Shown: one piece after another, positions 439 to 22,449 of the stretch
How positions within the stretch are numbered: the first letter of the stretch is position 1
How the letters are laid out: each line of letters begins with the position of its first letter
Assembly: GCA_036172245.1 (NCBI GenBank)
Contig: JAYWIR010000036.1
Coordinates: forward strand, 1,426,001-1,490,000
Length of the DNA stretch: 64,000 nt
Origin: Raillietiella orientalis
Taxonomy: Eukaryota
Direction: 5' to 3'
Translations under genes and position numbers: made by a program
The notes under the pieces: generated by a model
The model's database searches: none
What the model saw: the letters and a program-made list of their open reading frames with translations, nothing else
What the model was told of the DNA's origin: nothing

Positions 439-879
439 ATGCCCAAGCGAGAAGCCTGGCAGGGATCGAAGGTGCTGCACGACCTGGAGTGCACGCTGCA
501 GGCGCCGCTCCCCCCCAAGATCTCCCCTAAGCTCTTCCGACTGCTGAGCTCCGAGAAGTTCCAGGACTTCCTCAGCAACGTGCAGTGGTACGACGGCCTG
601 CAGAAGATACCGGGTGTCGGCTTCAGCTTCGCTGACCAGCTGCGCCAGGCGTCCTACCTCACCGTGGACAACTTGCACTCCCTGTACCTGGAGTGCAACG
701 AAAGCAAGCGGGACTTCGAGGAGATTCTTCGGGACCACGTTCTCAAACGAAGCAAGAGCTACCAGGACAACATAGAGGCCGTGTTCCAGGCGATGAAGTT
801 GTGGGACCGGAAGAAGAGAATGCTTCCTCGCAAAGGAGAAGAATGGTCGCGCGCCCCGTGCAAAGCGGCTGAACCGTGA
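439..879 (+). CDS. Divergent BAF (barrier-to-autointegration factor)-like protein A, 146 aa, intronless CDS
   Basis: SEKFQDF...LQKIPGVG...L...F...VFQAMKLW aligns without gaps to human BAF S4-F59 (SQKHRDF...LAGIG...F59), then to the C-terminal F78/W84. ATG in CAGCATGC context, GC3-rich codons, AATAAA at 909-914. Confidence 0.8.
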   Translation: MPKREAWQGSKVLHDLECTLQAPLPPKISPKLFRLLSSEKFQDFLSNVQWYDGLQKIPGVGFSFADQLRQASYLTVDNLHSLYLECNESKRDFEEILRDHVLKRSKSYQDNIEAVFQAMKLWDRKKRMLPRKGEEWSRAPCKAAEP

Positions 880-1532
880 GCGCGCTCGCAGAAAGGCAAC
901 ACCTTTTCAATAAAAAGGCTGTGGTGCAACTGCTCCGCCACCCCTATACACGGGTACCTCCTCCCCTTGTCGGCAAGAACCGGAGTCTCTTTCCAGGTGG
1001 CCTTTCTCGGCTCACGTCAGGTAGCGCTCGAATCGCAGTCGTCCATTGCGCGCGCAGCTGGAGCGAACCCCAGGCGAGAGGCGCGTTCAGCAGCTGAATC
1101 CGCGCGGAATCCCTTTCCTTGCCAGCTCCCCGGCCACGGATTCCCGCCGATCCACAAAGAGACCTGCCGAGACGCGCCGCGGCTACGCTTCCCGGTGAGG
1201 AGGGTCCTATGGGGTGTTCCACACCCCACGGTGACGACGCAGCGGCGTCGATTGGCCTCGAGACCTCCCCCTTAAGGTATCACCAAGGCAACGTCCACAA
1301 TCACCTCTCGACTTCATCTTCGTTCGAGTTTCTTCTCCTCCTCACCCTTCCATCCGGGGCTCCTCCAGCCGCCTTTCCGACCCTTCACTTCCAAGACGCG
1401 GCAGCAGCCACCGCCAGCAGGGCACGCGCGATCATCCCTGGAAGCCGGAAGACCCTCGTCCTTACAGATCCACCAACGATCGACGCAGAGATAGGGGAAA
1501 GGAGTACAAAATAGATCATCTGCAAATTCTCC

Positions 1533-1946
1533 ATGCTGAAGGAGACCCTCCCAGAGTCCCTGCCGCTACCGATTCACAGGGTTCTGAGCTCGCGGAAGTT
1601 TGCCCGCTTCGCGAAGAAGGTGCGAAGCGCGGATGTCGTCAAGAGAGCTGCCGGCGTGACCGCCGAGTTGGCTGCACTGCGGAGAGCGGACCACGTATAT
1701 ACCGTAGGGCAGCTGTTCGCGAACTGCATGCTCGACAACTACTTCGTGTTCAACCTTCACGAAGACACGTTTGGAGGACACCCCTATGACAACGCTTACC
1801 TGATCCACCTCGTCATGACTACGTACGCATTCAGGCAACACAACGGCCTTGACACCATGGAACGGACGAAGGGCAAGGGGGGGTCTTCCTCGGTAGACCT
1901 GCAGCCCAACAAAACAAACCTTTCGTCCACTCCACCATCCCGCTGA
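1533..1946 (+). CDS. Highly divergent BAF-like protein B, 137 aa (left arm of inverted duplication)
   Basis: RVLSSRKFARF...VVKRAAGVT...VYTVGQLF matches the paralog pattern RLLxSxKFxxF-x14-G[VI][GT]. DNAYLIHLVMTTY corresponds to DNIEAVFQAMKLW of protein A. The C-terminal half is shortened and more divergent. Confidence 0.55.
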   Translation: MLKETLPESLPLPIHRVLSSRKFARFAKKVRSADVVKRAAGVTAELAALRRADHVYTVGQLFANCMLDNYFVFNLHEDTFGGHPYDNAYLIHLVMTTYAFRQHNGLDTMERTKGKGGSSSVDLQPNKTNLSSTPPSR

Positions 1947-4084
1947 TTCCATTTCCAGTGGTCGAAGCGAAAGCAACCGCAGCCGGGGTCCCGCGGCAAC
2001 CAAGACGAGAGCGCCCCGGGTGCAAGGCGTCGGCCTGGATGCGGGCGTAGCAAAACCCTACGGCAGCTACGCTTCGGAGTAGGGTGGCGCGCCTGCACGA
2101 GCAAAGCAGGTCACGGGATGCGAAGCCTCGCCTGCCGCCGCGCCAGGGCACGGGAAGGGAGGGGGGAGAGGGGAAGAGAGGAATGCGGAAGGGAGCCGAG
2201 GGCCCGCACGAAACGACCGGAGTGTCCGTCGACAGAGAAGGGGCGAACAGCACAGCGGCGGAGAGGGAGGGGGCATCCAGGAGGCCCCCGGAGTCTCGGG
2301 AGGGAAGCGCCAGAGTCAAGAGAGTTTTGCTAGGAGGGAGGTGCCAGGGGGAAGCGGAGCGCTCGGAACCCGGAGAGGCGTGCGCGCAGATGCCACGCGC
2401 GGGAGCGGCGATGCGCGGCGCTTTGCGAGGCGAATGGGCCGCAAACTTCGCAAGCACCACCCTCCCCGCCTGGCAGATGAGGAGCAGGGAGCCATCCTTG
2501 GTGGCTTTGGCCTCCGCGCGCAGCCTTCACGCCAGTAGCGACCGCATTCCGCCGCCGTCGACGGCAAAGGCGCCAGCAGTGCGGTGGTTCCGCGCTCTCT
2601 CGGCGCGCCTGCCTCCCGCGCCAAGAGAGCTTCGGAGACTCGGCGCTCGTCCCCCGGGGAGGGTCGACCCGAGACGACCGACCAGCGGCGTCCCGACTGG
2701 TGGTGGCGCGAAGCGAACGAGGTGACACTCCTTCGCCGGCGCACCTTACCTCTTGGACTGTGGCGGCAGCTGCTAAGCTCGGAGGCGGCCCCAGCCCTCA
2801 TGACGGATCCCCGTCGCTGGGCGCAGGGAGCGATGGCGGCAGGTAGGGAGGCAGTCTCGCGCGGACGATGGGGCAAGAGGAGGGGAGCGTCTGGCAGCAC
2901 TGCCGAGGACCATCCTGGGGACGAGTTGGCCGTGCCGTTCGCAGAGATCGCCCCCTCCGGCGGCCGACCGACCGACGCAGGCAGCGGAACGCGCCGCGGA
3001 GTGTGCGCAGGCAGGGACGACCGCCCGCTTGTCGGGTGCACGCCCCCGGAAGAGCCCGCCACCACCGCTCCCGTGCGGCAGTCGCCCCGAAGCGTCGATG
3101 CCGCCCGCGATCACCCATCCAGAGGAGCCCCCCGTCGACTCCGCCCCCCTACCGAATGCGCCCTCCGACGAGCTCGCTCCCGATGCAGATGGAGGAGCAC
3201 GCGATCCGCATCCCTTCCGCCGGGAATCGCCGGCAGTGACTCCTCCCGCCCACCGCGCACCTGCTGCGGACCTGACGCGCGCTCACACAAGCGTCTTCGT
3301 CCGGAAGAAGGTCGCGGCGGCGACAGGTGGCGCTCGGTCGCAGGAGGGAGGGACAGGAGTCGGGCGGGTGCGTGGCGCGCGCCCAAGGTCCCGCCCGGCT
3401 GGCCGGACGCTGAGCGACCGCAGATCTCCAAGAATGGTGGTTAGGTTCTGAATGACTCATAGAGAATGACCATAGAATTGGGTTGAGGCTGCTCCCCGCG
3501 GACGAGCGGCTCCTCTGCTGGCCAGTTGAGGCCGCTGGAGGTAAGAATCCCCTCCGACGGTGGCTCCTGCCTGCCCTACCATCCTTTGCTCCGCCTCCGC
3601 CGCCCCGCCGCACTCCCGCCGATGTACCGCGGAATCCTCGTATCGCGCGTGGTCGATAGCTTGCTCGGGATACGAGGCTGTGCCATGGGACGATGTGTGG
3701 CGCAACATGCTGACCCGCCCCACTCCCGCTCCGTTTCTCGCTCGCGATCGGTCCACCCCCCTGTCGCACCCTGACACGGTCAACGAAGACCGACCCGACC
3801 TTCGAAAACCGACCGCCCCATCAGCTTGGGCGCGTTTACAATGCAGAGGTCTCCTAGGAGACGCGAGGAGCTTTCCAGTATTTCCTCCCTCTTCCACTCT
3901 TCTGACCGCCTTGTCGACCGAACGGCTTTTCCGGGAGCGCGCTTGCTGTCCGAATACGCTGCAAGCAGGAAGGAAAGAAGTCAGTGCGGTTTGCCCCCCC
4001 TTCCCTCACCCCCACCGAACGATCGTCGGAAAGAGTTGCGGACGGACGCTGCCGAGGCGGTGCGAGTAACCGTTCGCCAGCAAA

Positions 4085-4492
4085 ATGCCCTGCGGGGTTA
4101 TGAGCAACCTCCAGTTCCTCGGGAGATTCCCCACGCTGCAGGCTGAGATCGAGAGGAAGAAGTGGGGTTCCAAAAAGACGAGACTGCTGAACTCGAAGAA
4201 GTTCGAGCACTTCGTCAGGAACGGGCAGCTGAGCGACCGCGTGAGGGAGATCCCTGGGATTGGCTCTGTCTTCGATCAGCGTCTGCGGTTGCACGGCGTC
4301 TTAGCGGTGGAGGACCTGTACTACGTGTTCCTGGAGGGCCAGAAGGACGAGAAGCGGTTCATGGACTTTCTGTACGGCGAGGTGCTGGAGAGGGACACCG
4401 GTTTCCGGAAGAACGCGGAGATCGTGTTCCTGGCGCTCCGCTTGTGGGACGAGGTCCACGGAGACGAGATTCGGCTGGCGGCAGGGTACTGA
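4085..4492 (+). CDS. Divergent BAF-like protein C, 135 aa (left arm of inverted duplication)
   Basis: SKKFEHFV...VREIPGIGSVFDQRLRLHGV...FLEGQKDEKRF aligns ungapped to BAF S4-F59 (GIG HhH motif, L34, G38, F49-L50, KDExxF). It ends in VFLALRLW. AAAATG start context. Confidence 0.85.
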   Translation: MPCGVMSNLQFLGRFPTLQAEIERKKWGSKKTRLLNSKKFEHFVRNGQLSDRVREIPGIGSVFDQRLRLHGVLAVEDLYYVFLEGQKDEKRFMDFLYGEVLERDTGFRKNAEIVFLALRLWDEVHGDEIRLAAGY

Positions 4493-5049
4493 CGGGACGC
4501 CCGAGGTCCACTGCTGCTGAATGAAGTGTGTTTTGCTTGATGGTCTATCGAGGTGAAGAGCATGGGCGCCGTGTCCATCCTGACCTTCGTGTTCTGCTAC
4601 GGCGCTGTGCCTTCTTTCAACGTGATTCCGATTGCTCCGGTGGACCGTTTTGCTTGTTTTCAGCGCACGTGTCGGTATGGGGAAAATTCTCATTCGTTTT
4701 GGAGTTCTGCTTCCCCGAATGGAGGATTGCTGGTGAGGAGGGTAGGAATAGAACGTGGCATAATCTCCGGGGTCTTCGTGCTGGATTGTGTCCATGCGTC
4801 CATTTCGGGAGGTAAACCGGGGGCTCCAAGATGGCGGACATGCCGTGCAGCTCGCCCCTTCCTCCGATTTGTCATCTGGCACTGTCTCCTGAGGGTCGCT
4901 TTTAGGCGAAGGATGGAATTTTTTTTCGTATGGGAGGATAATGGGAGACCAAGCGGACAACGATGGAGAGTTGTGGACTGTGGCTGACGAGGTAAGAGGC
5001 AGAAATGCATGGGGTGGGCTACGGTCATAGGGTCTGGAGTGAGTGTGAG

Positions 5050-8000
5050 ATAACAGGATATTGACAGGAGATGCTGACAGGCGTACACTAAGATGATGAC
5101 TAAGATGTTTAGCTACTGCGGTTCAAGTTGTACAAGTATTTACATATTTCCTACATTCCAGTGGAATGTGGAATGTAAAGACATTATTCTAGGACTCATA
5201 GGTTATTGAAGTGGATGTTATGATTGCCGTTTTATTTGGAGTTTTAAAGGTTTTCCATTCTTGGACAACTAATCTTGGGAAGGTTGTTGCAGTTGGCATT
5301 AATAATGATTGCAAGGTTAAGGTGTTTTTCTCTTTAGGAGATACAAGTTAGTGAGGTTGTGCACAAAATATTGATTTTGATTTTATCTAAAAATTTGCGA
5401 GGTAACAGTGGGCTTCTGCTTCATTGTTTTAGTCAGTGAAGGTGATGTGCAGTTGTGGCTGGGAGGATTGTTTTTTGTTTCTCGATCTATAACTGTTTCA
5501 GAGAGTTTGGAATTGTATCTTTATCACAAGTCATGTGCTCATTTGGGGTGTGTGGGGGGGGATCCTTTTGTTGGTATCGATACTTTCGTGGGCGAGTTTT
5601 CAAAAAAAAAAAAATAAAGTTTTTCCTGATATAGTTGAGAGAGAAGCAATTTTCAGAAAGACAAAGAATGGATGATGGTTTCAATTAGAATTTTCTATCG
5701 ATAGTATTCGTTTATACTTTGTCGTAAAAATCAGGTAGTACTGGTAGGAGAATTAGGGTTTGATGTATATGGTGGTGATTAGGTAAAGGGTCATGGCCTT
5801 ACGAATTGTTGCTTCATATTTTATCTTTTATTTGAGCATGGACGCATTCTAATGGGGAAGACTGTGGGCCGGTATGAGTCCCAGAAGTGAGTGCTACAGA
5901 TTTTTCTCTTCATTTATACGGTTTATAGACCTTTTTGATGCTAACAAGCGTGGATTCCCTTCCGGTTTTTATGGGCATAGTCGCTGGGTTGACAGACATT
6001 AGAATAAATTTGGTATTAATGGAGGTGTTTTTTTCGTTCAATTGTTAATGTGTCGATTCACTCAAGGCTTTGTAACCTCACGAAGGAACAGCTTGTTTGG
6101 ATGGTTAGGTTCTTAAAATTCAAGAATTATTGACATATGCAGGCATCTTTAGTAAATGTACATCTAGGATTGTTAAGGCATTAATGAGAATAAGTGTATT
6201 GAGTGATGTGCTTAGGATGTGTTTTGTTTTCTGTTAATTGCTCACAAAGGTGTCACATGATGGTAATTATTGGTAGAATGGTGGGTGGTGAAATGAAAAT
6301 AATAGGGTATATTGATGATGGGATTTCATGGATATGTAGCTTCTAGTGCATTTTTTGTGAAAAGGCTGGTACAGAAGTGGTTGGGGAGATTTCAATTTAG
6401 GGGCCAGAAGAGCACATGGTTTTATAATAATTTGATTTAATGTGTCATTTCCATTAAGATTGGAGTTACTTGAGGAAATTATTGTGCATATCTTTATTAA
6501 AAGGCGAAAGAATTATGTGTTAGAATGGCGACCAGAGTTGTACATATCTTATAGTAGGATAAGAATTTATATAATGTGTGCTTAAGGATTCTTACTTTAT
6601 TAGAGGAATGAATAGAGATAGATATGAGAGTGAGCAGAATGCAACACGGATTTATGCTCTCAGAGGGAGTTCAGGGTGATTATAAAACATTTGTCATTAT
6701 TCTGCATGTATTAATTGGATTGTGGATGTTGTGATCATTATGGTTTATTGTGAAGTATTTCAAAGTAGTTTAAGAAAATAGGATGTTAATGCTTGTGATA
6801 TCACAAACAAGTCCTTGGTTTGTCGTAGTTTAGGTTGTTATTTTGACTTTATATATGGGACTATGGTAGGTTTGCTGAGATGGTTCGATTATATTGGATT
6901 AGTTTTATGTTATGAGGAGAGTTCATGGACTCACATAAGGATGATGATTGTTTGGGATCACAAATGTCTGTTATTTGTGGAGTGTGTATTGATAGTGCCT
7001 GTTTTGGCGTTGACTCCTAATTAGGAGCATGTTGATCTGAGTGAGGCAATCCTTTATGGCTTTTGTTCTGACTTGTGGTTAAAACAATATCCCAAATGAG
7101 CATCAAAATGTTTCCCATCATTTAGGATGGGATGGGTTGGGTATTATCTGTTATTTCTCAGTTTTTTTATGGACATAATTCCCTGATTCTAATGAAATGC
7201 TTGCAGTTTTAAGCATGAGAGATCGAATTTTGTTAATGAGAGTGAAATTCCTTGTTATGAAGCATTCCTACTATTTTGCATTTTTAGATATTGGTATATA
7301 GTATAAGGTTGAGGGAGTTAAATAGGATTGATATAAATTTGTGATTAATTCAACAACTTTCTGATCATTAACCAAACAATCTGATTATATGTGCAAGAGT
7401 GGAATTTTCATTGAGGAGGTTTGGGACTGCACCAGTTTCCACTCTTAGAAAAGGGATAGCTCTTGATTGGTAGGATCCGTAGTGATTGTAGTGATAGTGT
7501 TGCAGGCTATCATAATGCTGCAGTGAAGGTGTGGATCAGTCTCATTGTGAGTTACAGATGGATCAGATTGGGATCTTTAAAAGTCTAGATTTCCATATGA
7601 TCAGAATCCTTGGTTGGTGATGGAGCTCTTGTAAAAGAGGATGAATAGCTACTGTCCATCAAGCAGTGGGTATTAGGGAGTGGATTCCTATTGAATACTA
7701 CATGTTATTTATTAGCTAGGAGGATGAGGATGAGAAATTTTGAAATATGGAACAGGCAGGTATATAGTGATTTGGATTACTGTGATGTCATCATGAAGAA
7801 AGAAGAAGTGTTATGTGGGAGAAGACTTTGAATTTTGGAATATTAATGGGATGTTGCTAACTATTTTGTGGATCTTGAAGAAGCTATTGTATTAATTTCG
7901 TCATATTTAAACAGTGGAATGAGTGGATGAAAGTGTGTGAATGAATACACAATTCATTCTAGAAATTTTGATGTTGATAAGGGATCAATTATATTGTTTA

Positions 8001-10300
8001 TGGAGTTTGCCAAAATAATAATAAAACGATTGTAGATAATAAACAAATTGTGGAGATTTATAATCCTGGGGTTGGGATTATGTTTTTTAGTTTGAAAATG
8101 TTTGGATAAATAAAATAGCATAATGCAACAGCATGATTTTTATGAGGCTTAAGAAGGGTACCTTAATGTCAGTAAATGGTGAAGGTTGTTGAATATTAGG
8201 AAATAGATAGTTGTTTTAGAGGGTATTCCTTGATCAAGGTAGTGATGAAACTGAGAAGACAACTCTTGTTGATAAAACATAATAGAAGTGGGCTATAACT
8301 AGTTATCATCAAGGGATGTATCAATGGGAAGCAAAGGTATCTTAGTAAGTCTCCCAGTCATAAAGATTTAAATAAAGCCACCACAGAGATGTGCCATGGG
8401 AAAGCTTAGAGCTATATAGAGCACCCAGTCGTATTAAGTATTGACATTGACATGGACGTAGGTCTTATATTTTTCCTTGGCTATCATGATGATCCCAAAG
8501 ATGTCAAAAACTTTTATTTATTTATTTTTCTTAAATAGGATGATGGGAAATATAATTTCAAATCCAGGTGGTATATGATTTGTGTTTGAGGATATCCAGA
8601 GAGTCAGAATAAGTTTTTGAATATCATGGTTTCCCTTTTTTGTGGATTGAAGAAGGATTTATTGAAGTTATGATTGAACAGAAGTATGGTAATGCTGCTT
8701 GATTCTAAGATTACCAGAATGGCAGTTGTGAATGTGGTTTCTGTAAGAAGACACATTGAAGAGACTGATGTGTTTGCTAACTTTATGATTGGGATGATAG
8801 TGGTGAAATGGAATGCTCTTGGAATTGAAGATTTCCTCCTGTTGGATGAGTGAAACTGATTCAATCGATTCCTTTGGAGTAACTGACGAGTAAAGGGTAC
8901 TTCTTGTTAATAATCATTGAAAACAGCATTTTCTGGGGATTATTTTGGCCAAGGCTGAGGAGAAAACTCAAAATTTAAAGTTCTTCAATTGAGAGGATGC
9001 CATGGCCTGGTGAGTCTTATAGGGGGGGAATTAGTTCCAAATATCCTTGTTATGACTAGGCAGAAGATTATGGTGAGGGAGAAAGTGATGATAATGTTAG
9101 TGTTGATTTTTTATGAAGGAGGCAAAATTATTGATGGCTTAAGCCTTCACCAGCTGGGCTGTTGTTCCTATTCATAAGAATTTCAGCTTCTTTGAACATC
9201 AGATCTAAATGTTGTCAAGTGGGAAGATAACAAATTTCATAGGAGGATGGACAGGAGGAACATTGGCGATAGTAAGGCAAAATATGTGAAATGATGTTTA
9301 TTAAGGGTGAGGAGGGTAAGTGTTGATAATCTGATGTTAAGGTAGATGAAGAAAGGTTGGTAGATAGGTTTAAGTATGGAAAAGGGATAAACGAAAAAAT
9401 AATTTGAAGAAAAGAGTGGGGTTGTAAATGGGTAATCATTTTTGAATTAAAACTTTGGATCTAGCTTTTTAGGTGAATGGGATTTTTGATGTTTGAATGA
9501 GGGAATTAATTGTGAAATTCATGGATAATATTGATCTGGTCCCCATTCCAATGGGTAATTCTTTCGCTATTTGCTAGAGAATTTCGTTGCTGAAAAGGTC
9601 TAAAGAAGATTGATGATCAGTCAATCTAAAGAGGTTAATAGGGCATTTATTGGGTAAATGATACTTCTGAGTAATATTGAATGAGGATGATGGTGGAGGA
9701 TTGTAGAAAAATGATGAACAGTGGGATTTAATTTTGTCAAATGAATACAGTGGTTCTAGATATTTGTCAGTTGTGGATGGTGTACATAGTAGTGGAATTT
9801 TACCTCACTAATTTGATTTCTGAGGAAGATTGTATTGGTTCAATTAATACATTCCTAATGATATTATTAGTCAATTTTGTTTATAACTCGGTTTGTAATT
9901 GTATTGGAATTTGAGCTAGAATATTGAGTACAGTGTAAGGTTGAGTGAGAAAGTAATAGAAGGTTCAAAGATACGCTTCACTACTGAAGTGCGAGTCATG
10001 AGCTCAGATTGGCTTATCTTGAAGAGTAATGGCACCAAGTGCGGTATCTGCATTGAAGAAAATTTAACCAGTATTGGGATGGTGAAGAAGGAGGATGATA
10101 ATTATGGATGGATGCTTCTCCAGTGCAAGATTAAGAAGGTTGTTGAAGTTTTCAAGTTCATGATAGATGTCTTTGAAGTAAACTATTCATCCGGGTTGTT
10201 GAAGTCTCTCAAAAAGAATTTCACTGAAACCATCAGTGTTGTTTCTGTTCTGACTATGGCTTCTAGGTGCCTTTGATAGGAGAACCTGTGTAAGCAGCAA
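5050..10300 (-). mobile_element. Old, heavily decayed AT-rich LINE-like retrotransposon in the spacer of the inverted duplication
   Basis: Strong strand skew (plus strand G/T-rich, C-poor) with no long ORF. Minus-strand vestiges occur in EN-then-RT order: DSDH (~7600), IKKLRNN (~7160), LFVISQA resembling LxDxxKAFD (~6800). Confidence 0.4.
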
Positions 10301-12149: not shown

Positions 12150-12780
12150 GCTGGGGTTCTGCTTCACCTGTTTGTCGGTCCTTCGTGTGACGTGGGCTGC
12201 ATCGATGTCCCTGGAGCACCGGGTGCACGAGGCCACCATCCGGTGCCTCATCGTCCCCAAGTTCTTTTTTGGAATTCCAGGGTCCTGTAGTGCTTCCTCT
12301 TTACTGGATCCCAGGCTCGCAGAGAGCCAATGATGAAAGCATGCACCCTGCATTGCTCCCCCTCTACCTAACTGGAGGGCTGCTTTCTTGTACTTTTTTC
12401 TGTTTTCTCTTCCAAGCTGCGCTGAACTCCTCTCCACCCTCGTAAGGCAGCAGACGCCCAGCACTATAAACCGGTTCCCCTTTTTCATCACTAAGGAGTT
12501 CTTTCCTGAAGTTCCCTGGTTAGTGGACACTAGGATCAATTTGCTTCATCCACTGCGGTCTTGATGATCATCTCGTGAATCACATCGTGTCGCACAATGG
12601 ACAGATGAAAGTGTCTCCTGCATTTGTTTAGCATCACGCACTTCCCCACATGCGCAGGCTAAGAGACTCGTAAGAGACAGCCACCCTTTTTATCCTAGGC
12701 CTCCTGCATCCTGTGACCACCAAGCTCCATTTCTTGACAAGGGTAATACTCGATTTTGAGCGTGGTTCATCTTAAGCCTT
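12150..12780 (-). mobile_element. 3' fragment of an RLE-type non-LTR retrotransposon (Utopia/NeSL-like), pseudogenised
   Basis: Minus-strand HAQNRVLPL, CRR...ESL, LNKCRRHFHLSIVRHDVIHEMI (CCHC finger plus RHD motif), then RKKY...SLGSSKEEALQDPGIPKKNLGTMRHRMVASCTRCSRDIDAAHVT. This matches the remembered Utopia C-terminal pattern GxLGSW..NE..L..LGI...M...MVS..I..SRDIY.EHVTG. Frameshifted. Confidence 0.7.
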
Positions 12781-13308
12781 ACGAGTCTCTTCTGATAGCA
12801 AGTTAGGAGGATCAAGAAAAGATCAGATAAGGTCATCAGAAAGATCTCGTTGGTAATCAAGGATATTCAGCTGCGGGCACATTCTTAAAAAGCTGAGGTG
12901 TTCCGGGGTGAAAGTGCATCCCGATAACAAGTAGGAGAGCTAAGGATGGGAGAAATTAGAAACGAGGAAGGGGGAACTGCACGGGATGAAGGAAAAGTAG
13001 GAACAGAAAACGAGGGAAAAGAGGAAACTTAGGCGTTTATGCCGAGCTGCGGGACACAGGGATCCATCTTGCAGGGTACTTGCAGCCTCGATAGGATAGC
13101 ACAGCAAACAAAACGATACCAGAAAGGAAGTTCAATAAATAAGAAACTCAACATAAGGACGTAATCAGAGCATCCTGATAAACCAGCGAAGAAGAGCAGT
13201 TTTCAGCAAAAAGAGATTTCAACTCCGCTTCACTTCCCCCTCTCAAAAAAAAAGAATCCATCAATTCAAGAACACTTCATTCAGCAGCAGTGGACCTCGG
13301 GCGTCCCG

Positions 13309-13716
13309 TCAGTACCCTGCCGCCAGCCGAATCTCGTCTCCGTGGACCTCGTCCCACAAGCGGAGCGCCAGGAACACGATCTCCGCGTTCTTCCGGAAAC
13401 CGGTGTCCCTCTCCAGCACCTCGCCGTACAGAAAGTCCATGAACCGCTTCTCGTCCTTCTGGCCCTCCAGGAACACGTAGTACAGGTCCTCCACCGCTAA
13501 GACGCCGTGCAACCGCAGACGCTGATCGAAGACAGAGCCAATCCCAGGGATCTCCCTCACGCGGTCGCTCAGCTGCCCGTTCCTGACGAAGTGCTCGAAC
13601 TTCTTCGAGTTCAGCAGTCTCGTCTTTTTGGAACCCCACTTCTTCCTCTCGATCTCAGCCTGCAGCGTGGGGAATCTCCCGAGGAACTGGAGGTTGCTCA
13701 TAACCCCGCAGGGCAT
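13309..13716 (-). CDS. BAF-like protein C, identical second copy (right arm)
   Basis: The translation is identical to 4085-4492 and the coordinates mirror (x <-> 17801-x). Confidence 0.85.
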   Translation of the reverse strand: MPCGVMSNLQFLGRFPTLQAEIERKKWGSKKTRLLNSKKFEHFVRNGQLSDRVREIPGIGSVFDQRLRLHGVLAVEDLYYVFLEGQKDEKRFMDFLYGEVLERDTGFRKNAEIVFLALRLWDEVHGDEIRLAAGY

Positions 13717-15854
13717 TTTGCTGGCGAACGGTTACTCGCACCGCCTCGGCAGCGTCCGTCCGCAACTCTTTCCGACGATCGTTCGGTGGGGGTGAGGGAA
13801 GGGGGGGCAAACCGCACTGACTTCTTTCCTTCCTGCTTGCAGCGTATTCGGACAGCAAGCGCGCTCCCGGAAAAGCCGTTCGGTCGACAAGGCGGTCAGA
13901 AGAGTGGAAGAGGGAGGAAATACTGGAAAGCTCCTCGCGTCTCCTAGGAGACCTCTGCATTGTAAACGCGCCCAAGCTGATGGGGCGGTCGGTTTTCGAA
14001 GGTCGGGTCGGTCTTCGTTGACCGTGTCAGGGTGCGACAGGGGGGTGGACCGATCGCGAGCGAGAAACGGAGCGGGAGTGGGGCGGGTCAGCATGTTGCG
14101 CCACACATCGTCCCATGGCACAGCCTCGTATCCCGAGCAAGCTATCGACCACGCGCGATACGAGGATTCCGCGGTACATCGGCGGGAGTGCGGCGGGGCG
14201 GCGGAGGCGGAGCAAAGGATGGTAGGGCAGGCAGGAGCCACCGTCGGAGGGGATTCTTACCTCCAGCGGCCTCAACTGGCCAGCAGAGGAGCCGCTCGTC
14301 CGCGGGGAGCAGCCTCAACCCAATTCTATGGTCATTCTCTATGAGTCATTCAGAACCTAACCACCATTCTTGGAGATCTGCGGTCGCTCAGCGTCCGGCC
14401 AGCCGGGCGGGACCTTGGGCGCGCGCCACGCACCCGCCCGACTCCTGTCCCTCCCTCCTGCGACCGAGCGCCACCTGTCGCCGCCGCGACCTTCTTCCGG
14501 ACGAAGACGCTTGTGTGAGCGCGCGTCAGGTCCGCAGCAGGTGCGCGGTGGGCGGGAGGAGTCACTGCCGGCGATTCCCGGCGGAAGGGATGCGGATCGC
14601 GTGCTCCTCCATCTGCATCGGGAGCGAGCTCGTCGGAGGGCGCATTCGGTAGGGGGGCGGAGTCGACGGGGGGCTCCTCTGGATGGGTGATCGCGGGCGG
14701 CATCGACGCTTCGGGGCGACTGCCGCACGGGAGCGGTGGTGGCGGGCTCTTCCGGGGGCGTGCACCCGACAAGCGGGCGGTCGTCCCTGCCTGCGCACAC
14801 TCCGCGGCGCGTTCCGCTGCCTGCGTCGGTCGGTCGGCCGCCGGAGGGGGCGATCTCTGCGAACGGCACGGCCAACTCGTCCCCAGGATGGTCCTCGGCA
14901 GTGCTGCCAGACGCTCCCCTCCTCTTGCCCCATCGTCCGCGCGAGACTGCCTCCCTACCTGCCGCCATCGCTCCCTGCGCCCAGCGACGGGGATCCGTCA
15001 TGAGGGCTGGGGCCGCCTCCGAGCTTAGCAGCTGCCGCCACAGTCCAAGAGGTAAGGTGCGCCGGCGAAGGAGTGTCACCTCGTTCGCTTCGCGCCACCA
15101 CCAGTCGGGACGCCGCTGGTCGGTCGTCTCGGGTCGACCCTCCCCTGGGGACGAGCGCCGAGTCTCCGAAGCTCTCTTGGCGCGGGAGGCAGGCGCGCCG
15201 AGAGAGCGCGGAACCACCGCACTGCTGGCGCCTTTGCCGTCGACGGCGGCGGAATGCGGTCGCTACTGGCGTGAAGGCTGCGCGCGGAGGCCAAAGCCAC
15301 CAAGGATGGCTCCCTGCTCCTCATCTGCCAGGCGGGGAGGGTGGTGCTTGCGAAGTTTGCGGCCCATTCGCCTCGCAAAGCGCCGCGCATCGCCGCTCCC
15401 GCGCGTGGCATCTGCGCGCACGCCTCTCCGGGTTCCGAGCGCTCCGCTTCCCCCTGGCACCTCCCTCCTAGCAAAACTCTCTTGACTCTGGCGCTTCCCT
15501 CCCGAGACTCCGGGGGCCTCCTGGATGCCCCCTCCCTCTCCGCCGCTGTGCTGTTCGCCCCTTCTCTGTCGACGGACACTCCGGTCGTTTCGTGCGGGCC
15601 CTCGGCTCCCTTCCGCATTCCTCTCTTCCCCTCTCCCCCCTCCCTTCCCGTGCCCTGGCGCGGCGGCAGGCGAGGCTTCGCATCCCGTGACCTGCTTTGC
15701 TCGTGCAGGCGCGCCACCCTACTCCGAAGCGTAGCTGCCGTAGGGTTTTGCTACGCCCGCATCCAGGCCGACGCCTTGCACCCGGGGCGCTCTCGTCTTG
15801 GTTGCCGCGGGACCCCGGCTGCGGTTGCTTTCGCTTCGACCACTGGAAATGGAA

Positions 15855-16268
15855 TCAGCGGGATGGTGGAGTGGACGAAAGGTTTGTTTTGTTGGGCTGC
15901 AGGTCTACCGAGGAAGACCCCCCCTTGCCCTTCGTCCGTTCCATGGTGTCAAGGCCGTTGTGTTGCCTGAATGCGTACGTAGTCATGACGAGGTGGATCA
16001 GGTAAGCGTTGTCATAGGGGTGTCCTCCAAACGTGTCTTCGTGAAGGTTGAACACGAAGTAGTTGTCGAGCATGCAGTTCGCGAACAGCTGCCCTACGGT
16101 ATATACGTGGTCCGCTCTCCGCAGTGCAGCCAACTCGGCGGTCACGCCGGCAGCTCTCTTGACGACATCCGCGCTTCGCACCTTCTTCGCGAAGCGGGCA
16201 AACTTCCGCGAGCTCAGAACCCTGTGAATCGGTAGCGGCAGGGACTCTGGGAGGGTCTCCTTCAGCAT
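15855..16268 (-). CDS. BAF-like protein B, identical second copy (right arm)
   Basis: The translation is identical to 1533-1946, with mirror coordinates. Confidence 0.55.
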   Translation of the reverse strand: MLKETLPESLPLPIHRVLSSRKFARFAKKVRSADVVKRAAGVTAELAALRRADHVYTVGQLFANCMLDNYFVFNLHEDTFGGHPYDNAYLIHLVMTTYAFRQHNGLDTMERTKGKGGSSSVDLQPNKTNLSSTPPSR

Positions 16269-17348
16269 GGAGAATTTGCAGATGATCTATTTTGTACTCC
16301 TTTCCCCTATCTCTGCGTCGATCGTTGGTGGATCTGTAAGGACGAGGGTCTTCCGGCTTCCAGGGATGATCGCGCGTGCCCTGCTGGCGGTGGCTGCTGC
16401 CGCGTCTTGGAAGTGAAGGGTCGGAAAGGCGGCTGGAGGAGCCCCGGATGGAAGGGTGAGGAGGAGAAGAAACTCGAACGAAGATGAAGTCGAGAGGTGA
16501 TTGTGGACGTTGCCTTGGTGATACCTTAAGGGGGAGGTCTCGAGGCCAATCGACGCCGCTGCGTCGTCACCGTGGGGTGTGGAACACCCCATAGGACCCT
16601 CCTCACCGGGAAGCGTAGCCGCGGCGCGTCTCGGCAGGTCTCTTTGTGGATCGGCGGGAATCCGTGGCCGGGGAGCTGGCAAGGAAAGGGATTCCGCGCG
16701 GATTCAGCTGCTGAACGCGCCTCTCTCCTGGGGTTCGCTCCTGGAAATGTGTCCCCAGCGTGCCAGGTTCACCATATCCATCATCTCTCTTATAAGGTAC
16801 TTCGAATGCGCACACGAGTCTGGTGGATTAACCTGTATGGTGGGTACAAATGAGTTCCGAAGTTGTTCGTGATCTCCGCCAGCCGAGAAAAAGCAATCTC
16901 GACCGCAGTTGGGCTGCGGTTTGCTCCTCTTTTCCGTCTTACGCCTCCTGCAGCAGCGAGAGGTCTGGCAGTAGTTCGCCAAGAGCCCTCGTGGGCAGCC
17001 ATGCCCTTTTGGGTCGCTGTGCCAGTGCAAGTGGTTCGCCTTGCGGCCGGGCAGGGTCCTGGAAGTCGAGAGCCAGCCTGTGCGCTGCGTGCGAAGATGT
17101 CGGCTGATGGATGCTGAATGTTGCGGAGCATGGTGGTGGGTGCACACGCTTGGTCTCTGCAGCGCGGCTCGCAAGATGAGGACTGCGTACTGTTGGACGT
17201 ATCAGAGACGCGCGGGGTGAGACGATACGCAGCCAGCGCCTTCCCGTGCACGAACTGTTCGCGCGGACCTGTCTCCAGCTCAAGGCAGCCGACCGAGGAG
17301 GAGGATGCTGGCACGCGCGGTTCGTTCTACCCTTGGCAGAAGAGGTGC

Positions 17349-17670
17349 CCGGGTTGCCTGCGTGCTTTCGTAAGGAGCGCTGGTCCCTTGAGTCTGCAGG
17401 CGCGTGAGAGCGGCCCCGCCCTCGCGGCGTTGGTCCTACAGAGAGATGGTCACACAGTTCGGCTCCGAAAACAGGAAGTGGAACGAATGGGGTGTCGGCG
17501 GCTGGGGAGCTGAGGGACGTCCAGATGACGTCCATCTCTTCACTGACATTTTGCAGCTCTTCCCGTAACACCTCCGCTCCGGACGCACGAGCAGAGCAAC
17601 AGCGTACAATCAATGGCAGGATGCTGATGCAGGATGCAGGTCTCCGGGAGACGGTTCGTTCAAGTCATCC
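17349..17670 (+). repeat. ~322-bp diverged direct repeat, copy 1
   Basis: Aligns with 19641-19962 (shared CAGTTCGGCTCCGAAAACAGGAAGTGGAACGAATGGG...GGACGTCCAGATGACGTCCATCTCTTCACTGACATT), with scattered substitutions and small indels. Confidence 0.9.
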
Positions 17671-17896
17671 CTGGCGAGGCGAAAGCTCGGGAGAGGCGAA
17701 TGCTGTCGGTGCGCCCTTGAGAAGCTCGGAATCATTTTTGCGCGCAGTCAGTAGGTGGTGGCAGCCGCGGGAAGGACCGCCATCCCAGCATCTGCCCCGC
17801 AACAGAAAGAGACCAAGAGAGAGAGAGAGAAAGAATGAGAGAGGGAGAGTTACTGCGGTTGTTGGAGGTTTCTTTATTCGCGCTGGGCCATTTACG

Positions 17897-18283
17897 TCAC
17901 AAGTGCTCCTTATTCCACATTTCTATTGCAATGAAGGCCACTTCGCAGTTCTCTCGAAACCTCCTATTGCACTGCAGTATCTGTTCATACAGGGAGTTTA
18001 CGAAGGCCTCCTCGTTCCCGCTGCACTCCGTGAACAGGTTGTGGAGGTCATCAATTGTTGAGATTTTGAATCTGCCCAGGTGCTCCGCCATCACTCCGCC
18101 TATCCCGGGCACCTTCCTGACGCTTTCCGTCGGCAGCCTCCGGGTGAACTTCTCCAGCTTTTCGGAGTAGAGAAGCCTTCTCTTCTTGGGGGTCGTCGCC
18201 CTGTGGCCCAGAGTCGGCTCCAGCGTGGCGATGCGCTTCTCTTTGCTCTCCGAGCCCATTCGTTCTGTCCTCACCCTCGGCAT
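17897..18283 (-). CDS. Divergent BAF-like protein D, 128 aa from ATG 18283, with basic NLS-like PKKRR
   Basis: RLLYSEKLEKF...VRKVPGIGGVMAEHL...LFTECSGNEEAF...NCEVAFIAIEMW. First in-frame ATG at 18283; AATAAA on the minus strand at 17878-17873, just past the stop. Confidence 0.8.
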   Translation of the reverse strand: MPRVRTERMGSESKEKRIATLEPTLGHRATTPKKRRLLYSEKLEKFTRRLPTESVRKVPGIGGVMAEHLGRFKISTIDDLHNLFTECSGNEEAFVNSLYEQILQCNRRFRENCEVAFIAIEMWNKEHL

Positions 18284-19640
18284 CTTCGGTCTTTTGTTTC
18301 GGACGGTTCTTTCGAGATTTCTTTCCTCCGTGTGCTCTCCTGTAGCAAAGAGTTCTCTTGGGGTATTTCCTTTGTGGCCGTGAGCCAAATCAAGGTCAGA
18401 AACGTAGGGTTGGGCGGAAGGTTAAAAAAACTCGTGCTCAGGGAGTGGATTTTGGGAAGAATGTGAGGGCGTTCGAGGATTCTAAGCGTAACCAAGGTGA
18501 TCCATTCTCGAGAATGATTAGAAAAGTTGGAAACGAGGGCATTATTGGCAAGACGATCTATAAATGGCCGATGAAGCCACCTCGCCCCTTCTCTCCGCTT
18601 TGGGCGAATCTTGACACGCCTTGGGCTTGGGTGACCTGCATCTGACCCTTCTCACTCCTCCCTCGCACCGGCAACTAATAAAAAATAGTACTCGTGAGCT
18701 CTCGATCTCTCAGCTTCCTCCTTCTCCTTCCTCGACAGGATCTTCCAGTTTCTCTCCGTCCCACGTCACTCTCGCACCTCGGAGCCACTTTCCTTTCAGA
18801 CTCAACCTGCTCGTAGCCCGTGAGCGCGCGCTGCCACGGGCAGTATCTTCCCGTTCCCTCCGCGCAGTGTCTACGCAGAATGACGGGACCGCAGAGCCTC
18901 GATAGGGGGACGGCGGACGATTTTCCGTGGCTGCATTACCCTGACATCGACATGCCATTGGGTCGAGACATACCGTGAGACCCATCATTTGTCCCGGCGA
19001 TCCTCTTCAAAGCCCGCTGGGCCGCTCCTTCCCCTCTGCCCATTTCGAAGGCTCACGATGCGCCTCAACTGCCCGCGCGGGGTCTTGCGGCAGCATGGGA
19101 AGGAGGCGAGGGACGTCCGTCTGCTGTCCGTGAGATCCGGGACGAAACGCGTTCGTCCCCAGGACATCGACTGTAGGCTGCCACGCGACCGCGCGTTGCT
19201 CTGCGTCGAAGGTGGCGTTCAGAACGCCCCTTGCGGCAGCGAATCCGAGTTGCGGCGTTGACGCTCCTGCGGACGGCGGTGGCTTTAGCTGCCTTCTCTT
19301 CCCAGGAAAGAATGGACTAGGCTGCTTCCACTTACTGTTTGCGTTGTCCCATTTCCCGGGAACTCTCCTTGCAGCAGCGAGAAACCTATCGCCCGTTCCC
19401 CGAGAGCCCTTGGAAGCGCCGTCATCTGGCACCGTCCCTCGTGGACCCCACACAGCGCCTTCGTGGCGTGGCGAAATCCCGATCGGAGGCGGAGTGGTGG
19501 GACGATTTTTTCGCTGCTGGCGTTCGCAGCGGCATCCCGAGAGGAAGTGGCGGCTGGCTCGCGGTGGCATCCGCTCTCCCTGTTCACCGAAGAACGGTGG
19601 CCCTCCTGCGACGCCACTTCGATCGGCACTTCGGGGTCGT

Positions 19641-19962
19641 CCGGGTTGCCTGCGTGCGTCCGTAGGAGCGCTGGATCCTTTCGCATGCAGGTGCGTGAGA
19701 GCGACCCCATCCTCGCGGCGTTGGTCCTACAGAGCGATGGTCACAGTTCGGCTCCGAAAACAGGAAGTGGAACGAATGGGATGTCGGCGGCTGGGGAGCT
19801 CAGGGACGTCCAGATGACGTCCATCTCTTCACTGACATTCTGCAGCTCTTCCCGTAACACCTTCGCTCCAGACGCACGAGCAGAGCAACAGCGTACAATT
19901 ATCAAGGGCAGAGTGCCGCTCCAGGATGCAGGTCGCCAAGAGACTGTCCGTTCAAGTCATCC
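19641..19962 (+). repeat. ~322-bp diverged direct repeat, copy 2
   Basis: See 17349-17670. Confidence 0.9.
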
Positions 19963-21231
19963 TCATCGCAGGGAGGACGGCGCGAACGCGTCTTGGGTGC
20001 CCTTCACCTTCCTAAGACTCTTCGCGGTCTCTCGCCTGCCAGCGGGAGTCGGTGCGGTCGCAGCAACGAGAACACCGGCCATTTGCGAGCAGGAGGGGAC
20101 GCTCCTCCTCCCTCGGGGACGGCAGACGCTCCCGAGCCTCTCTGGCCACGCCGGACGCTCCCGGGAGAGACGCCGGCCTGGGCGCCTTCATGCGGCCGGT
20201 TGCCTCCTGGCGCCAGGGGGATTGCCACGGCGCGGAGGAAGGAAGGGAGAGGCAGGGCATCTCCAGGGATCCTTCCCCCCTCTGTTTCTCCTCCTGCTCG
20301 CTCCCACGGGAGAGCGTCCCGCCGCCTTCACTGCTCGGAGTGTGTTGCGAGGACTTGCGCGAGTGTAAGGTGGGAAGGGCGTGCATTCCTCCAGGATTCC
20401 TCCTTCGGGAATCGGGCTTAAATGAGCGGAAGGTGTCGGAATGCAAATCGGATTGGCTCCAGACCCTCCAAGCCCTTTGTTCCAGGACGCGCGAGTATTT
20501 TCGGGAACCGCACGTCGAAGACGTCTACCCTACCCGCTCCTGACGGGAAGAAGGACGGGGTTTCCGGCAGATCCGCTCTCTTCTGCTACCGTCTTTGGCA
20601 TGCAAAAGAGGCGCTTCCACCATGGGAACGTCATCGATAATGGGTAAGACCCCATCCAGATGCCTCCGTCTCCGTGGCTCTCCCGGTCGCTTCCCAACGG
20701 CGGCAGGAGACTAAGAGGGAGAGGGGGGCTTCCCTGGGGCACGGACACGGGCAGCGTGGTCACTCCCCGCCGCTGTCACGAGGGTGCCGTTCTTTCGCCC
20801 CTACCTTCTTCCCTCAGGCAGCCCAGACTGCACGTCACAGACTGGGGAAAGGGGAGGAGGAGAACGGTTGAGAAGGAAGGACGCGCACGTCAGGAGAGCG
20901 CGATCGTCGCGTCCTTCGCGGAGGAGCCGTCTGAGCGCGGTGGGGTCGCCGGACGCCGCGCGCAAAGGACACGTTGCCTGGAAACTGTCTCCTCGGTCAA
21001 ACTTAAAATTCCTAAATCGAATGTTTTTCTCTTCCCCTTTTCGCAGGTGTGCTCTGTGCCAAAGAGTGCAGAGGCTGCTGCGAGCTGCGAGGGAGTCTCC
21101 GCACCTCATCTCTTGTCCGCCTGTCTGGAAGAAGGAGGAGGCTGAGACAAGGAAGCGTTCCCGAGTGCCGCGCAAGCGCAAGATATCCAGCTCGTGGGGA
21201 GTTCTCCTGAGTGTTCCTCCAGGAGCTAAGC

Positions 21232-22218
21232 ATGGAGCCTCTTCCGGGAGCCGTGAACTATGTCACGATATTCCCGGGCGAGGACGAAGGATTCTACGCC
21301 TTCCTGAGGGAGGAGGTCGCCAACTTCTTCTTCCTCATAGGCCAGATTTCTGCGTTGGAGGAGGAGGGGACGCAAAGAACGGATGAGGAAGCGGCAGTGA
21401 TCCCTCCGCCGAAAAGCACTAGAACACCGCCTTCCATCCCAGCCAGGTACGACCGCGCCCTCGGGTCGTTGCCCGAGGAGGAATTCCACCTGACGGACGA
21501 GCAGAAGAGGCTGTTGCTGAGCAGTCTGCAGGTGCCAAAGTCGCGCGAGGACCAGCTCTTCCTGTATCTGGAGAACAGCATCAAAAACTACAGGTGGATG
21601 GTGGCCGCGCAGAGAAACCAGGCGATCAACGCCATGAGGGTCAACCTGAACATGCAGATGAACCAGGAATTCAACGACCACATCAAGTGGCTCTCGAGGA
21701 TCTTCCTCGAGGATGGGAAGATCGCGCACCCCTTCCTGGTGCAAGAGCAGACACAGAGGAGAGCGCCCGCAGTCCGGTGCGCCATCCACGAGCTCGAGAG
21801 AGAGAGGAGGGCCGGCTCGTCCCGGGAGCGGGACTCCGTCGAGAGGAGAGCGAGAGCCTGTCTGGCGGGGGAGGCCACGAGTCTCATACAGACCCTGATG
21901 AACAGCTCCGCTTACACAAAGTTCGTCTCTGATCCCAATCTCTGCAAGTCCGTGCGGTGCATACCGGGAGTGACCCAGAAGTTCCACCTCTACCTCCTGA
22001 ACGCTCACATCGGCACGGCGCAGAAGCTGTACGACGAGTTCTTTCGAAGAGACGGGGACGAAGAGAAGTTTATGATTAGCATCATAAACTCCGTCCTGAG
22101 TTCCGACAAGACCCTGCAGCCCAACGTGCAAGTAGTCTTCCAGGCGCTGAAGGACTGGCACGAGAGGCACTCCCAGAAGGCGCAAGAAAAGGAGGAGGAG
22201 CCAGACGAAGCTCACTGA
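21232..22218 (+). CDS. 328-aa protein E: unknown N-terminal region (~225 aa) fused to a C-terminal BAF-like domain (~21904-22160) and an acidic tail
   Basis: C-terminal SSAYTKFVSDPNLCKSVRCIPGVT...FFRRDGDEEKF...VFQALKDW keeps BAF F10, V11, P14, K18, V20, G25, F59 and W84 spacing. An in-frame stop at 21208-21210 precedes ATG 21232. A probable 5'UTR intron lies at 20644-21046 (GTAAGA...CCTAAAT...pyrimidine tract-CAG). Confidence 0.8.
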   Translation: MEPLPGAVNYVTIFPGEDEGFYAFLREEVANFFFLIGQISALEEEGTQRTDEEAAVIPPPKSTRTPPSIPARYDRALGSLPEEEFHLTDEQKRLLLSSLQVPKSREDQLFLYLENSIKNYRWMVAAQRNQAINAMRVNLNMQMNQEFNDHIKWLSRIFLEDGKIAHPFLVQEQTQRRAPAVRCAIHELERERRAGSSRERDSVERRARACLAGEATSLIQTLMNSSAYTKFVSDPNLCKSVRCIPGVTQKFHLYLLNAHIGTAQKLYDEFFRRDGDEEKFMISIINSVLSSDKTLQPNVQVVFQALKDWHERHSQKAQEKEEEPDEAH

Positions 22219-22449
22219 AGAGAAGGAACACGAAGAGAAAAGGCCGGTCGGAGGACGACCTCTGGCGAACAGTAATGAATCCTTTGTAGCTAAAATATCT
22301 TAGCAACATCAGTGTTTTCTCTGGACGGGACGCGAGCCAAACCGTTGCGGAAGAGGACTCTCGCTCCGGGAGCGTCTCCCGGCGCCAGACCCTCTTGCGC
22401 CGAGCACCTGCACCGCCAGGGAAGCCGCACAGCTCGGATAGCGACGGCT

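Follow-up and report, generated by a model that had tools for sequence, protein, structure and literature searches.

A cluster of BAF-like open reading frames

The 64-kb stretch of DNA analyzed here (hereafter, the window) contains, within 22 kb of GC-rich DNA, seven open, single-exon reading frames that resemble BAF (barrier-to-autointegration factor), a small DNA-bridging protein of the nuclear envelope. These open reading frames (ORFs) were obtained by translating the first 24 kb of the window with the standard code and yield five distinct proteins, which are denoted by the letters A, B, C, D, and E, whereas B' and C' denote second copies. Gene A (positions 439–879, plus strand) encodes a protein of 146 amino acids (aa), in which an N-terminal extension of about 35 aa is followed by the BAF-fold domain. 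Gene B (1533–1946, plus strand; 137 aa) is the most diverged member of the set, and gene C (4085–4492, plus strand; 135 aa) is the best match to BAF and sits on the shortest branch. Two further genes, C' (13309–13716) and B' (15855–16268), both on the minus strand, encode proteins identical to C and B, respectively. The product of gene D (17897–18283, minus strand; 128 aa) has a basic PKKRR patch directly before the BAF-fold domain, and a KKWGSKKTR patch occupies the same place in C; both patches are likely to be nuclear-targeting or extra DNA-contact segments. In gene E (21232–22218, plus strand; 328 aa), an N-terminal region of 220 aa is fused to a C-terminal BAF-fold domain, the BAF-like part comprising residues 225–312 (approximately positions 21904–22167). 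This N-terminal region matched no Pfam family, and a search of a language-model atlas with residues 1–220 gave no usable match.

An earlier reading of the sequence alone (hereafter, the original prediction) had counted seven copies of five distinct proteins, and all seven ORFs were found at the coordinates given above. The window has 987 stop-to-stop frames with a minimum length of 40 aa, and a profile hidden Markov model (HMM) built from the five proteins retrieved exactly these seven ORFs when all of the frames were scanned; B scored 140.8 bits. All the proteins carry N-terminal extensions, as had been proposed; these are about 15–35 aa long (220 aa in E). The proteins measure 128–328 aa compared with about 89 aa for BAF and do not have its compact, domain-only form, as their N-termini are extended and their C-terminal helices are longer; extended or multi-domain BAFs do, however, occur among the database matches described below.

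Coding and 3'-end signals

Coding signal was assessed from the GC content at the three codon positions, and every frame in the window that reached 50 aa was ranked by the difference between the third and the second position (GC3 minus GC2). The values for the first, second, and third codon positions were 0.59/0.37/0.82 for A, 0.57/0.43/0.74 for B, 0.59/0.34/0.87 for C, and 0.49/0.41/0.76 for D; the N-terminal part of E (216 codons) showed a coding-type pattern as well (0.57/0.41/0.82). Altogether, GC2 ranged from 0.32 to 0.43 and GC3 from 0.74 to 0.87 in the five BAF-like ORFs, whereas six other long ORFs that were checked were flat or lacked the contrast of a high GC3 (GC2, 0.43–0.74; GC3, 0.56–0.74). 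In the ranking of all frames, the BAF-like ORFs occupied ranks 1–4, 8, 9, and 13, and the last exon of a serpin gene located further downstream in the window came in at rank 11.

The 5' ends of the genes were informative, too. The first ATG of A, B, C, and E lies 5–9 codons downstream of an in-frame stop codon, and A, C, and D have in common an MP start and a TL[QE][AP] motif within the N-terminal extension. These start positions, together with the shared motif, indicate that the extensions belong to the proteins and do not result from read-through.

Downstream of the genes, hexamers of the AAT[AG]AA type were found. An AATAAA, a candidate polyadenylation signal, lies 30 nt past the stop codon of A (909–914, plus strand), and another one lies 19 nt past that of D (17873–17878, minus strand, read from 17878); the original prediction had noted an AATAAA just past the stop in two of the genes. 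The variant AATGAA is located 28 nt past the stop codon of C (4520–4525, plus strand), with its mirror copy from 13281 on the minus strand at C', and 56 nt past that of E (22274–22279, plus strand). As a background, the GC-rich parts of the window, with a strand length of about 104 kb, contain 13 AATAAA and 16 AATGAA sites, that is, 29 in total. Five of these 29 sites are on the correct strand and 19–56 nt past the stop codon of a BAF-like gene (A, D, C, C', and E), and a rough calculation gives a chance of about 4e-7 that four of five distinct genes have such a hexamer within 60 nt. Taken together, A, C, D, and E carry gene-like coding and 3'-end signals.

Gene B differs from the other genes in several respects. 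Two extra insertions, one of 5 and one of 6 residues, are present in its protein, and P24, G27, L34, A80, and W84 (numbering of canonical BAF, see below) have been lost. B also forms by far the longest branch in both trees described below and shows the weakest coding contrast, and no AAT[AG]AA was found within 100 nt past its stop codon. The claim that all copies are intact therefore holds insofar as all seven ORFs are open, but it was overstated for B, which looks partly degenerate with respect to the lost residues, the insertions, and the missing hexamer. The B/B' pair may be either decaying or strongly re-purposed.

These observations bear on the alternative that most or all of the ORFs are dead retrocopies or pseudogenes derived from a BAF-like gene at another place in the genome and owe their open frames solely to the scarcity of stop codons in GC-rich DNA. 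The genes are indeed intronless, whereas the neighboring serpin gene has multi-kb GT-AG introns; many chance ORFs of 100–350 aa are present in the same DNA; fragments of long interspersed nuclear elements (LINEs) lie nearby; and B, with its lost invariant residues, two insertions, weakest coding signal, and lack of a 3' hexamer, would fit such an origin. However, although the paralogs are only 23–37% identical to each other, they have kept open frames, the residues of the fold core, and a strong contrast between GC2 and GC3, which argues for divergence under coding constraint. Moreover, the start contexts and the 3' hexamers are kept in four of the five genes, and neither a poly(A) tract nor nucleotide similarity between the paralogs, as would be expected of fresh retrocopies, was detected. 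We consider it distinctly unlikely that the cluster consists of dead copies, with the possible exception of B.

Sequence similarity to BAF

The shared motif from which the original prediction started is real: the columns S, F, G, L, F, and A are invariant in all five proteins, and the columns L, S, F, P, G, L, L, F, L, N, F, A, and W are invariant in A, C, D, and E. In Pfam searches, SAM_BAF (PF02961; gathering cut-off, 25 bits) was the top family for four of the proteins. Only C exceeded the cut-off (27.8 bits, E = 3.6e-6), and the matches of A (23.5 bits, E = 7.8e-5), residues 225–312 of E (23.7 bits, E = 6.7e-5), and D (17.4 bits, E = 6.3e-3) were below it. For B, no Pfam family was reported at E-values up to 10.

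A profile made from the five paralogs only was also used. Against the PDB sequences, it placed BAF in the first seven positions, though weakly (E = 0.07–0.16), followed by the thumb domains of DNA polymerase iota. Against 1.84 billion representative proteins (HMMER), it gave 77 matches with E ≤ 1e-3, the best of which had an E-value of 2.5e-11 and a score of 60 bits. Pfam was run on 36 of these 77 matches, and SAM_BAF was the best family in 31 of them; the remaining five, with lengths of 571–3033 aa, are multi-copy helix-hairpin-helix (HhH) proteins in which the match was confined to the hairpin. When a local HMM was made from the columns of the BAF domain, 47 of the 77 matches proved to contain near-full-length domains, 64 in total. 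The language-model atlas gave a similar picture: of the 30 nearest clusters, 16 belong to BAF, with a top score of 0.95; the best of seven clusters without a name is dominated by diatoms, and clusters of the Cdd1 pathogenicity-locus family were found at 0.85.

Residues were compared with those of 22 single-domain BAFs, using the numbering of a canonical BAF of 89 aa (P0049). Over positions 4–59, A, C, and E align with P0049 without any gap and D with one deletion, in agreement with the proposal that four of the proteins align with at most one gap from S4 to F59 of human BAF, and B has a 5-residue insertion in this range. Phe10 and Gly25 are present in all 22 BAFs and in all five window proteins, and Phe59 is likewise present in all five and in 20 of the 22 BAFs. 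Position 4, which we take to be the phospho-switch of BAF, is Ser or Thr in 20 of the 22 BAFs and Ser in all five window proteins; position 6, presumably a DNA contact, is Lys in 19 of the 22 and in four of the five (Ala in E). The N-terminal segment with Ser/Thr4 and Lys6 is, thus, largely retained. Gly27, found in 20 of the 22 BAFs, is present in A, C, and D and replaced by Thr in E and B, so that the HhH DNA-contact motif G-[IV]-G (positions 25–27) occurs in A, C, and D and reads G-V-T in the other two. Near the C-terminus, Trp84 is found in 15 of the 22 BAFs and in four of the five window proteins. Three positions have changed in the window family: position 42 is Ala in 21 of the 22 BAFs and Val or Ile in four of the five proteins, Gly47 is present in 12 of the 22 BAFs and in none of the five, and Trp62, also present in 12 of the 22, is absent.

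In addition, A, C, D, and E have an insertion of four residues after position 68, in the loop before the last helix. The original prediction had taken this insertion as the mark of a lineage-specific subfamily. The insertion is indeed common to the four proteins, but it is not diagnostic, because four of the 22 other BAFs have 3–5 extra residues in the same loop.

Predicted structures

Structures were predicted with AlphaFold2 (AF2) for C, using an alignment of the five paralogs and the 22 single-domain BAFs, and, as a control, for A, using the five paralogs only. The model of C had a mean predicted local distance difference test score (pLDDT) of 88. In a Foldseek search of the PDB, its first eight matches were all human BAF (target template-modeling [TM] score of 0.84–0.89, root-mean-square deviation [rmsd] of 1.9–2.3 Å, and 26–27% identity), and the next match after BAF had an E-value of only 0.6. 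The control model of A had a lower pLDDT (72.7, with about 80–89 in the core), and its first eight matches were again all BAF (TM score, 0.84–0.87). A comparison of this control model with 48,161 representative chains by VIA-align found BAF (9J8M, chain K) with a Z-score of 13.4 and an rmsd of 1.4 Å over 87 of 88 residues, whereas the runner-up, a SAM-like oligomerisation domain, reached a Z-score of 6.5. In the profile and structure searches taken together, no other HhH or SAM fold was preferred to BAF; such a preference would have refuted the original prediction. In the models, the domain is preceded by one or two additional short helices, and its last helix extends about 10–15 residues past that of BAF. 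Based on these models, A and C are predicted to adopt the BAF fold over the whole domain of about 88 residues.

Some observations would fit the alternative that the proteins belong to another HhH or SAM-like family and resemble BAF by convergence, namely weak secondary Pfam matches to IMS_HHH, IMS_HHH_1, Cdd1, and HHH, the five generic multi-HhH proteins among the 36 profile matches examined, and the Cdd1 clusters at 0.85 in the atlas. However, the matches to BAF cover the whole domain of 88 residues, whereas those to the other families cover only the hairpin of about 30 residues. Furthermore, core residues outside the hairpin (F10, F59, A80, and W84) are common to BAFs, and the structural Z-score is 13.4 for BAF, whereas no SAM or other HhH fold exceeded 6.5. 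Because the structural match extends over the whole domain, we regard convergence on BAF as so extremely improbable that it is, in effect, ruled out. The Pfam searches, the paralog-only profile, the language-model atlas, and the predicted structures agree in identifying the window proteins as far-diverged homologs of BAF, as originally proposed.

Phylogeny and relatives in databases

In a tree of 27 rows (the five window proteins and the 22 single-domain BAFs), from which multi-domain matches were left out, a branch with bootstrap support of 96% and 91% support in the Shimodaira-Hasegawa-like approximate likelihood ratio test (SH-aLRT) separates the five proteins from the rest. This grouping and the high ranks by GC3 minus GC2 go beyond what chance would produce. 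A second tree, of 69 rows, adds every near-full-length domain of the 77 profile matches. When the five proteins were held together in this tree, the result was 1.9 log-likelihood units above that of the free search, and the approximately unbiased (AU) test did not reject the grouping (p-AU = 0.54). The trees are based on only about 91 columns, which do not settle deep relations. They support the proposal of a single local radiation, in which the five paralogs have one local origin. The paralogs are 23–37% identical at the protein level, at which synonymous sites between them are saturated, and outside the palindrome described below no nucleotide similarity between them was detected.

The subfamily appears to be new to the collections that were searched, since the paralog-only profile gave nothing above 60 bits among 1.84 billion representatives and C, as the query of a word-indexed search restricted to near lengths, had no match among 5.8 billion clusters. 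The first of these results also indicates that the family is not an already annotated, widespread orthogroup, which would have refuted the original prediction. Scans of metagenomes with the family alignment and with C alone produced pattern matches, none of which was confirmed. Among 30 profile matches that were looked up, the only named organisms are animals (Steinernema, Mytilus, Crassostrea, Cololabis, Littorina, and Procambarus). A literature search on BAF paralogs and rapid evolution gave nothing relevant among the papers listed, and, in the available excerpts, none of the papers found for dinoflagellates or Apicomplexa deals with BAF homologs in these groups.

Public proteins with two or three BAF domains in tandem turned out to be numerous (P0003, P0009, P0010, P0011, P0013, P0014, P0029, and P0047). 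Some of them come from Littorina saxatilis and Cololabis saira, others from plankton or metagenome records, and they seem to be little described.

A palindrome and other repeats

Genes B and C are doubled by an inverted repeat, the left arm of which (1060–4543) carries B and C, and the right arm of which (13258–16741) carries C' and B'. The arms, of about 3.5 kb each, are 99.9% identical and are separated by a spacer of 8.7 kb (4544–13257). A base-by-base comparison of the arms revealed two mismatches in 1060–4529, at positions 1075 and 2655, neither of which is located in a BAF-like ORF. The edges of the repeat are sharp, with unrelated sequence outside on both sides. The palindrome probably represents either a very recent duplication of B and C or ongoing gene conversion. 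Two time scales can, therefore, be distinguished: identities of 23–37% and the lack of nucleotide similarity outside the palindrome imply that the radiation of the paralogs is old, whereas the near-identity of the arms implies that the palindrome is very young or has been homogenized by gene conversion.

Arms of 3.47 kb with only two mismatches, enclosing a spacer with sequence that is compositionally foreign and strand-asymmetric, could also result from an artefact of assembly or amplification, such as a chimeric or fold-back molecule, in which case only five genes would exist. However, the arms are not perfectly identical, the boundaries of the repeat are clean, with unrelated sequence beyond both, and near-identical palindromes with multicopy gene families are a known genomic feature. 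An artefact is, in our estimation, unlikely, and it bears on the copy number only.

Within the spacer, a block of about 5 kb (5000–10000) has a GC content of 34% and a strong strand asymmetry, with C making up about 8–13% of the bases and G about 22–28%; the observed/expected ratio of CpG is 0.33, compared with about 1.0 elsewhere. No tandem repeats were found in this block, and no coding-like frame was noticed in it. The block may have arisen by C-to-T hypermutation of one strand, or it may be an insert of foreign DNA or a chimera of the assembly.

Two smaller repeats were also observed. A direct repeat of about 325 bp, with an identity of 89–90%, is located on either side of gene D (17349–17670 and 19641–19962); terminal TG..CA or a target-site duplication was not recognized, and the repeat may have arisen by segmental duplication or mark the two ends of a small element. 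A second inverted repeat, of about 232 bp and with 96% identity, is found at 49857–50090 and 54537–54770. Scans of the window for Rfam families, tRNAs, and tandem repeats were all empty.

Neighboring genes and base composition

Downstream of the cluster, the window contains a diverged serpin gene on the plus strand (approximately 29537–29804 and 38205–38831) with multi-kb GT-AG introns. A long N-terminal frame of low complexity precedes its first exon. Positions 162–370 of the Pfam family Serpin are matched by the last exon (E = 1.1e-20), which also matches serpins in the PDB (E = 9e-11), and an AATAAA is present downstream of it at 39485. A word-indexed protein search (longer lengths) with this exon found no close homolog, and a candidate middle exon (32790–33116) had no Pfam match.

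Frameshifted remnants of LINE reverse transcriptases are located at 23048–25314 (plus strand) and 43129–43674 (minus strand). They share 72% nucleotide identity with each other and show a weak match to zf-RVT (E = 0.029). In a word-indexed protein search, one reverse-transcriptase fragment yielded one protein of 76% identity, a reverse transcriptase on a 2.9-kb contig, and one match of 28%.

The surroundings of the genes are relevant to another alternative, namely that they derive from a virus or a mobile element, such as a large DNA virus that was endogenized and brought in BAF-like genes, and are not a host chromatin family. The genes are intronless and clustered, the C-depleted, CpG-poor block with 34% GC lies within the cluster, and the nearest neighbors in the 69-row tree, P0037 and P0072, are found on metagenome contigs. 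However, searches of 2.9 million viral contigs with the family alignment, P0072, and P0037 led to no confirmed relative. In PHROGs, A, C, and D gave one sub-threshold match each, none of them to a BAF-like family: two are of unknown function (E = 0.066), and the best is to a DNA-polymerase family (E = 9.6e-4) and covers residues 47–83 of D, the HhH stretch. In addition, no other coding-like frame is present in the region of 1–22 kb, so that no viral hallmark gene is visible there, and the GC3 of the BAF-like ORFs (0.74–0.87) matches that of the serpin exon of the host (0.79). A viral or mobile-element origin is, in our opinion, very unlikely.

The base composition also has implications for the host. 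In the GC-rich parts of the window, the observed/expected ratio is 0.90–1.02 for CpG and 0.37–0.48 for TpA, and GA/TC is enriched. This composition does not look like that of a CpG-depleted vertebrate genome. The original prediction had framed the family as animal genes; as a CpG ratio of about 1 and the TpA values are not vertebrate-like, this framing is unsafe. Signals of the AAUAAA type and long introns point to a eukaryote with a large genome, and a search for the dinoflagellate spliced-leader relic gave 0 matches at up to 3 mismatches.

Interpretation of the cluster

In our view, the single-exon genes described here probably form a lineage-specific cluster that encodes far-diverged proteins of the BAF fold, in the GC-rich genome of a eukaryote that does not look like a vertebrate. 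Several points weigh against this interpretation and need to be set beside the evidence described above. Long chance ORFs are common in DNA of 60–70% GC, and for this reason intactness alone is weak evidence, especially for B. Four of the five proteins are under Pfam's own cut-off, with B lacking any match, and a single-sequence phmmer search of the PDB sequences with C did not list BAF. BAF structures were part of the training set of AF2, which limits the independence of the paralog-only control to its alignment. In the free search of the 69-row tree, the five proteins fell into a weakly supported group (67) that also includes P0072 and both domains of P0037. With the equivalents of Gly47, Ala42, and Trp62 replaced, the surface for dimers or partners may not be that of BAF; a Gly at aligned position 47 is, we assume, needed for the dimerization of BAF. 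Finally, the 4-residue insertion affects the loop before the last helix, which presumably also contacts DNA in BAF.

If the cluster does consist of genes for diverged BAF-fold proteins, A, C, and D would be small nuclear proteins that bind the backbone of double-stranded DNA without sequence preference, as BAF does. Binding would be mediated by the HhH motif (P-G-[IV]-G) together with the Ser-x-Lys segment that is conserved in the N-terminal part. By analogy with BAF, we give this mode of binding by A, C, and D about even odds. Should these proteins dimerize like BAF, they could bridge or compact DNA, and the invariant Ser, which is aligned to the Ser or Thr of 20 of the 22 BAFs, might act as a phosphorylation switch. 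E, in which the Lys is lost, G27 is replaced by T, and a large N-terminal region is added, and B, with its degraded HhH motif and insertions, probably bind DNA poorly. They might instead serve as modulators or adaptors or, in the case of B, be on the way to a pseudogene. Germline chromatin, nuclear reassembly, and defence against foreign DNA are candidate uses of the family, and the selected, rapidly evolving character and the germline/sperm or anti-retroelement roles put forward in the original prediction are likewise hypothetical.

BAF was named for its activity against foreign or retro-transcribed DNA, and a bolder, and unlikely, extension of our interpretation can be built around such a role. 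It holds that the host is not an animal, that the radiation took place outside Metazoa, that A, C, and D bind DNA and are regulated by the disabled E and B through heterodimers, that gene conversion in the palindrome maintains dosage or sequence identity, and that the system guards the nucleus against such DNA.

Whatever its biological use, a lineage-specific cluster of diverged BAF-fold genes would show how a core chromatin-bridging protein diversifies. As some members keep the DNA-contact residues and others do not, the cluster is a natural series for dissecting which surfaces of BAF serve DNA binding, dimerization, and partner choice. If the host were not an animal, the cluster would add to other signs of a wider occurrence of the BAF fold in eukaryotes, beside the plankton proteins and the diatom-dominated cluster in the atlas. 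The database matches suggest that the BAF fold is more widespread than has been stated.

Comparison with known BAF proteins

The closest known system is BAF/BANF1 itself (PF02961; human structures 1CI4, 2EZX, 6GHD, 7Z21, 7ABM, and 9J8M). BAF is usually a single, slowly evolving gene. The window models have the same five-helix fold over the whole domain; A, C, and D also possess the P-G-[IV]-G helix-hairpin-helix, and the equivalents of Ser4, Lys6, Phe10, Phe59, and Trp84 are kept in the window family. However, the identity between human BAF and the window proteins is only 16–27%, and the window proteins differ by their N-terminal extensions, the longer last helix, the 4-residue loop insertion, and the replacement of the equivalents of Gly47, Ala42, and Trp62. 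A further difference is the presence of five paralogs in 22 kb. In the available excerpts of one account, BAF is called "a conserved metazoan protein" that yeasts lack, is tied to LEM-domain proteins and lamins, and is regarded as an animal invention (PMC3198171).

The proteins with several BAF domains (P0003, P0011, and P0029; P0014 of Littorina saxatilis; P0047 of Cololabis saira; and P0058 of Procambarus clarkii) resemble the window family in being lineage-specific, diverged BAFs, and they are among the best matches of the profile (E-values of 8e-10 to 3e-4, all at most 60 bits). In contrast to the window genes, with one domain each, they have two or three domains per chain, or one domain and a tail, and they are placed apart from the five window proteins in the trees.

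BAF-L/BANF2, a diverged vertebrate paralog of BAF with a specialized role, provides a further parallel. Excerpts from three sources describe roles of BAF-L in the testis (PMC8877947; 10.1101/2024.05.16.594580; PMC8268354). Unlike the window cluster, BAF-L is a single gene of canonical length. It has been described as a non-DNA-binding partner, and E and B, which have lost DNA-contact residues, would fit a partner role of this kind.

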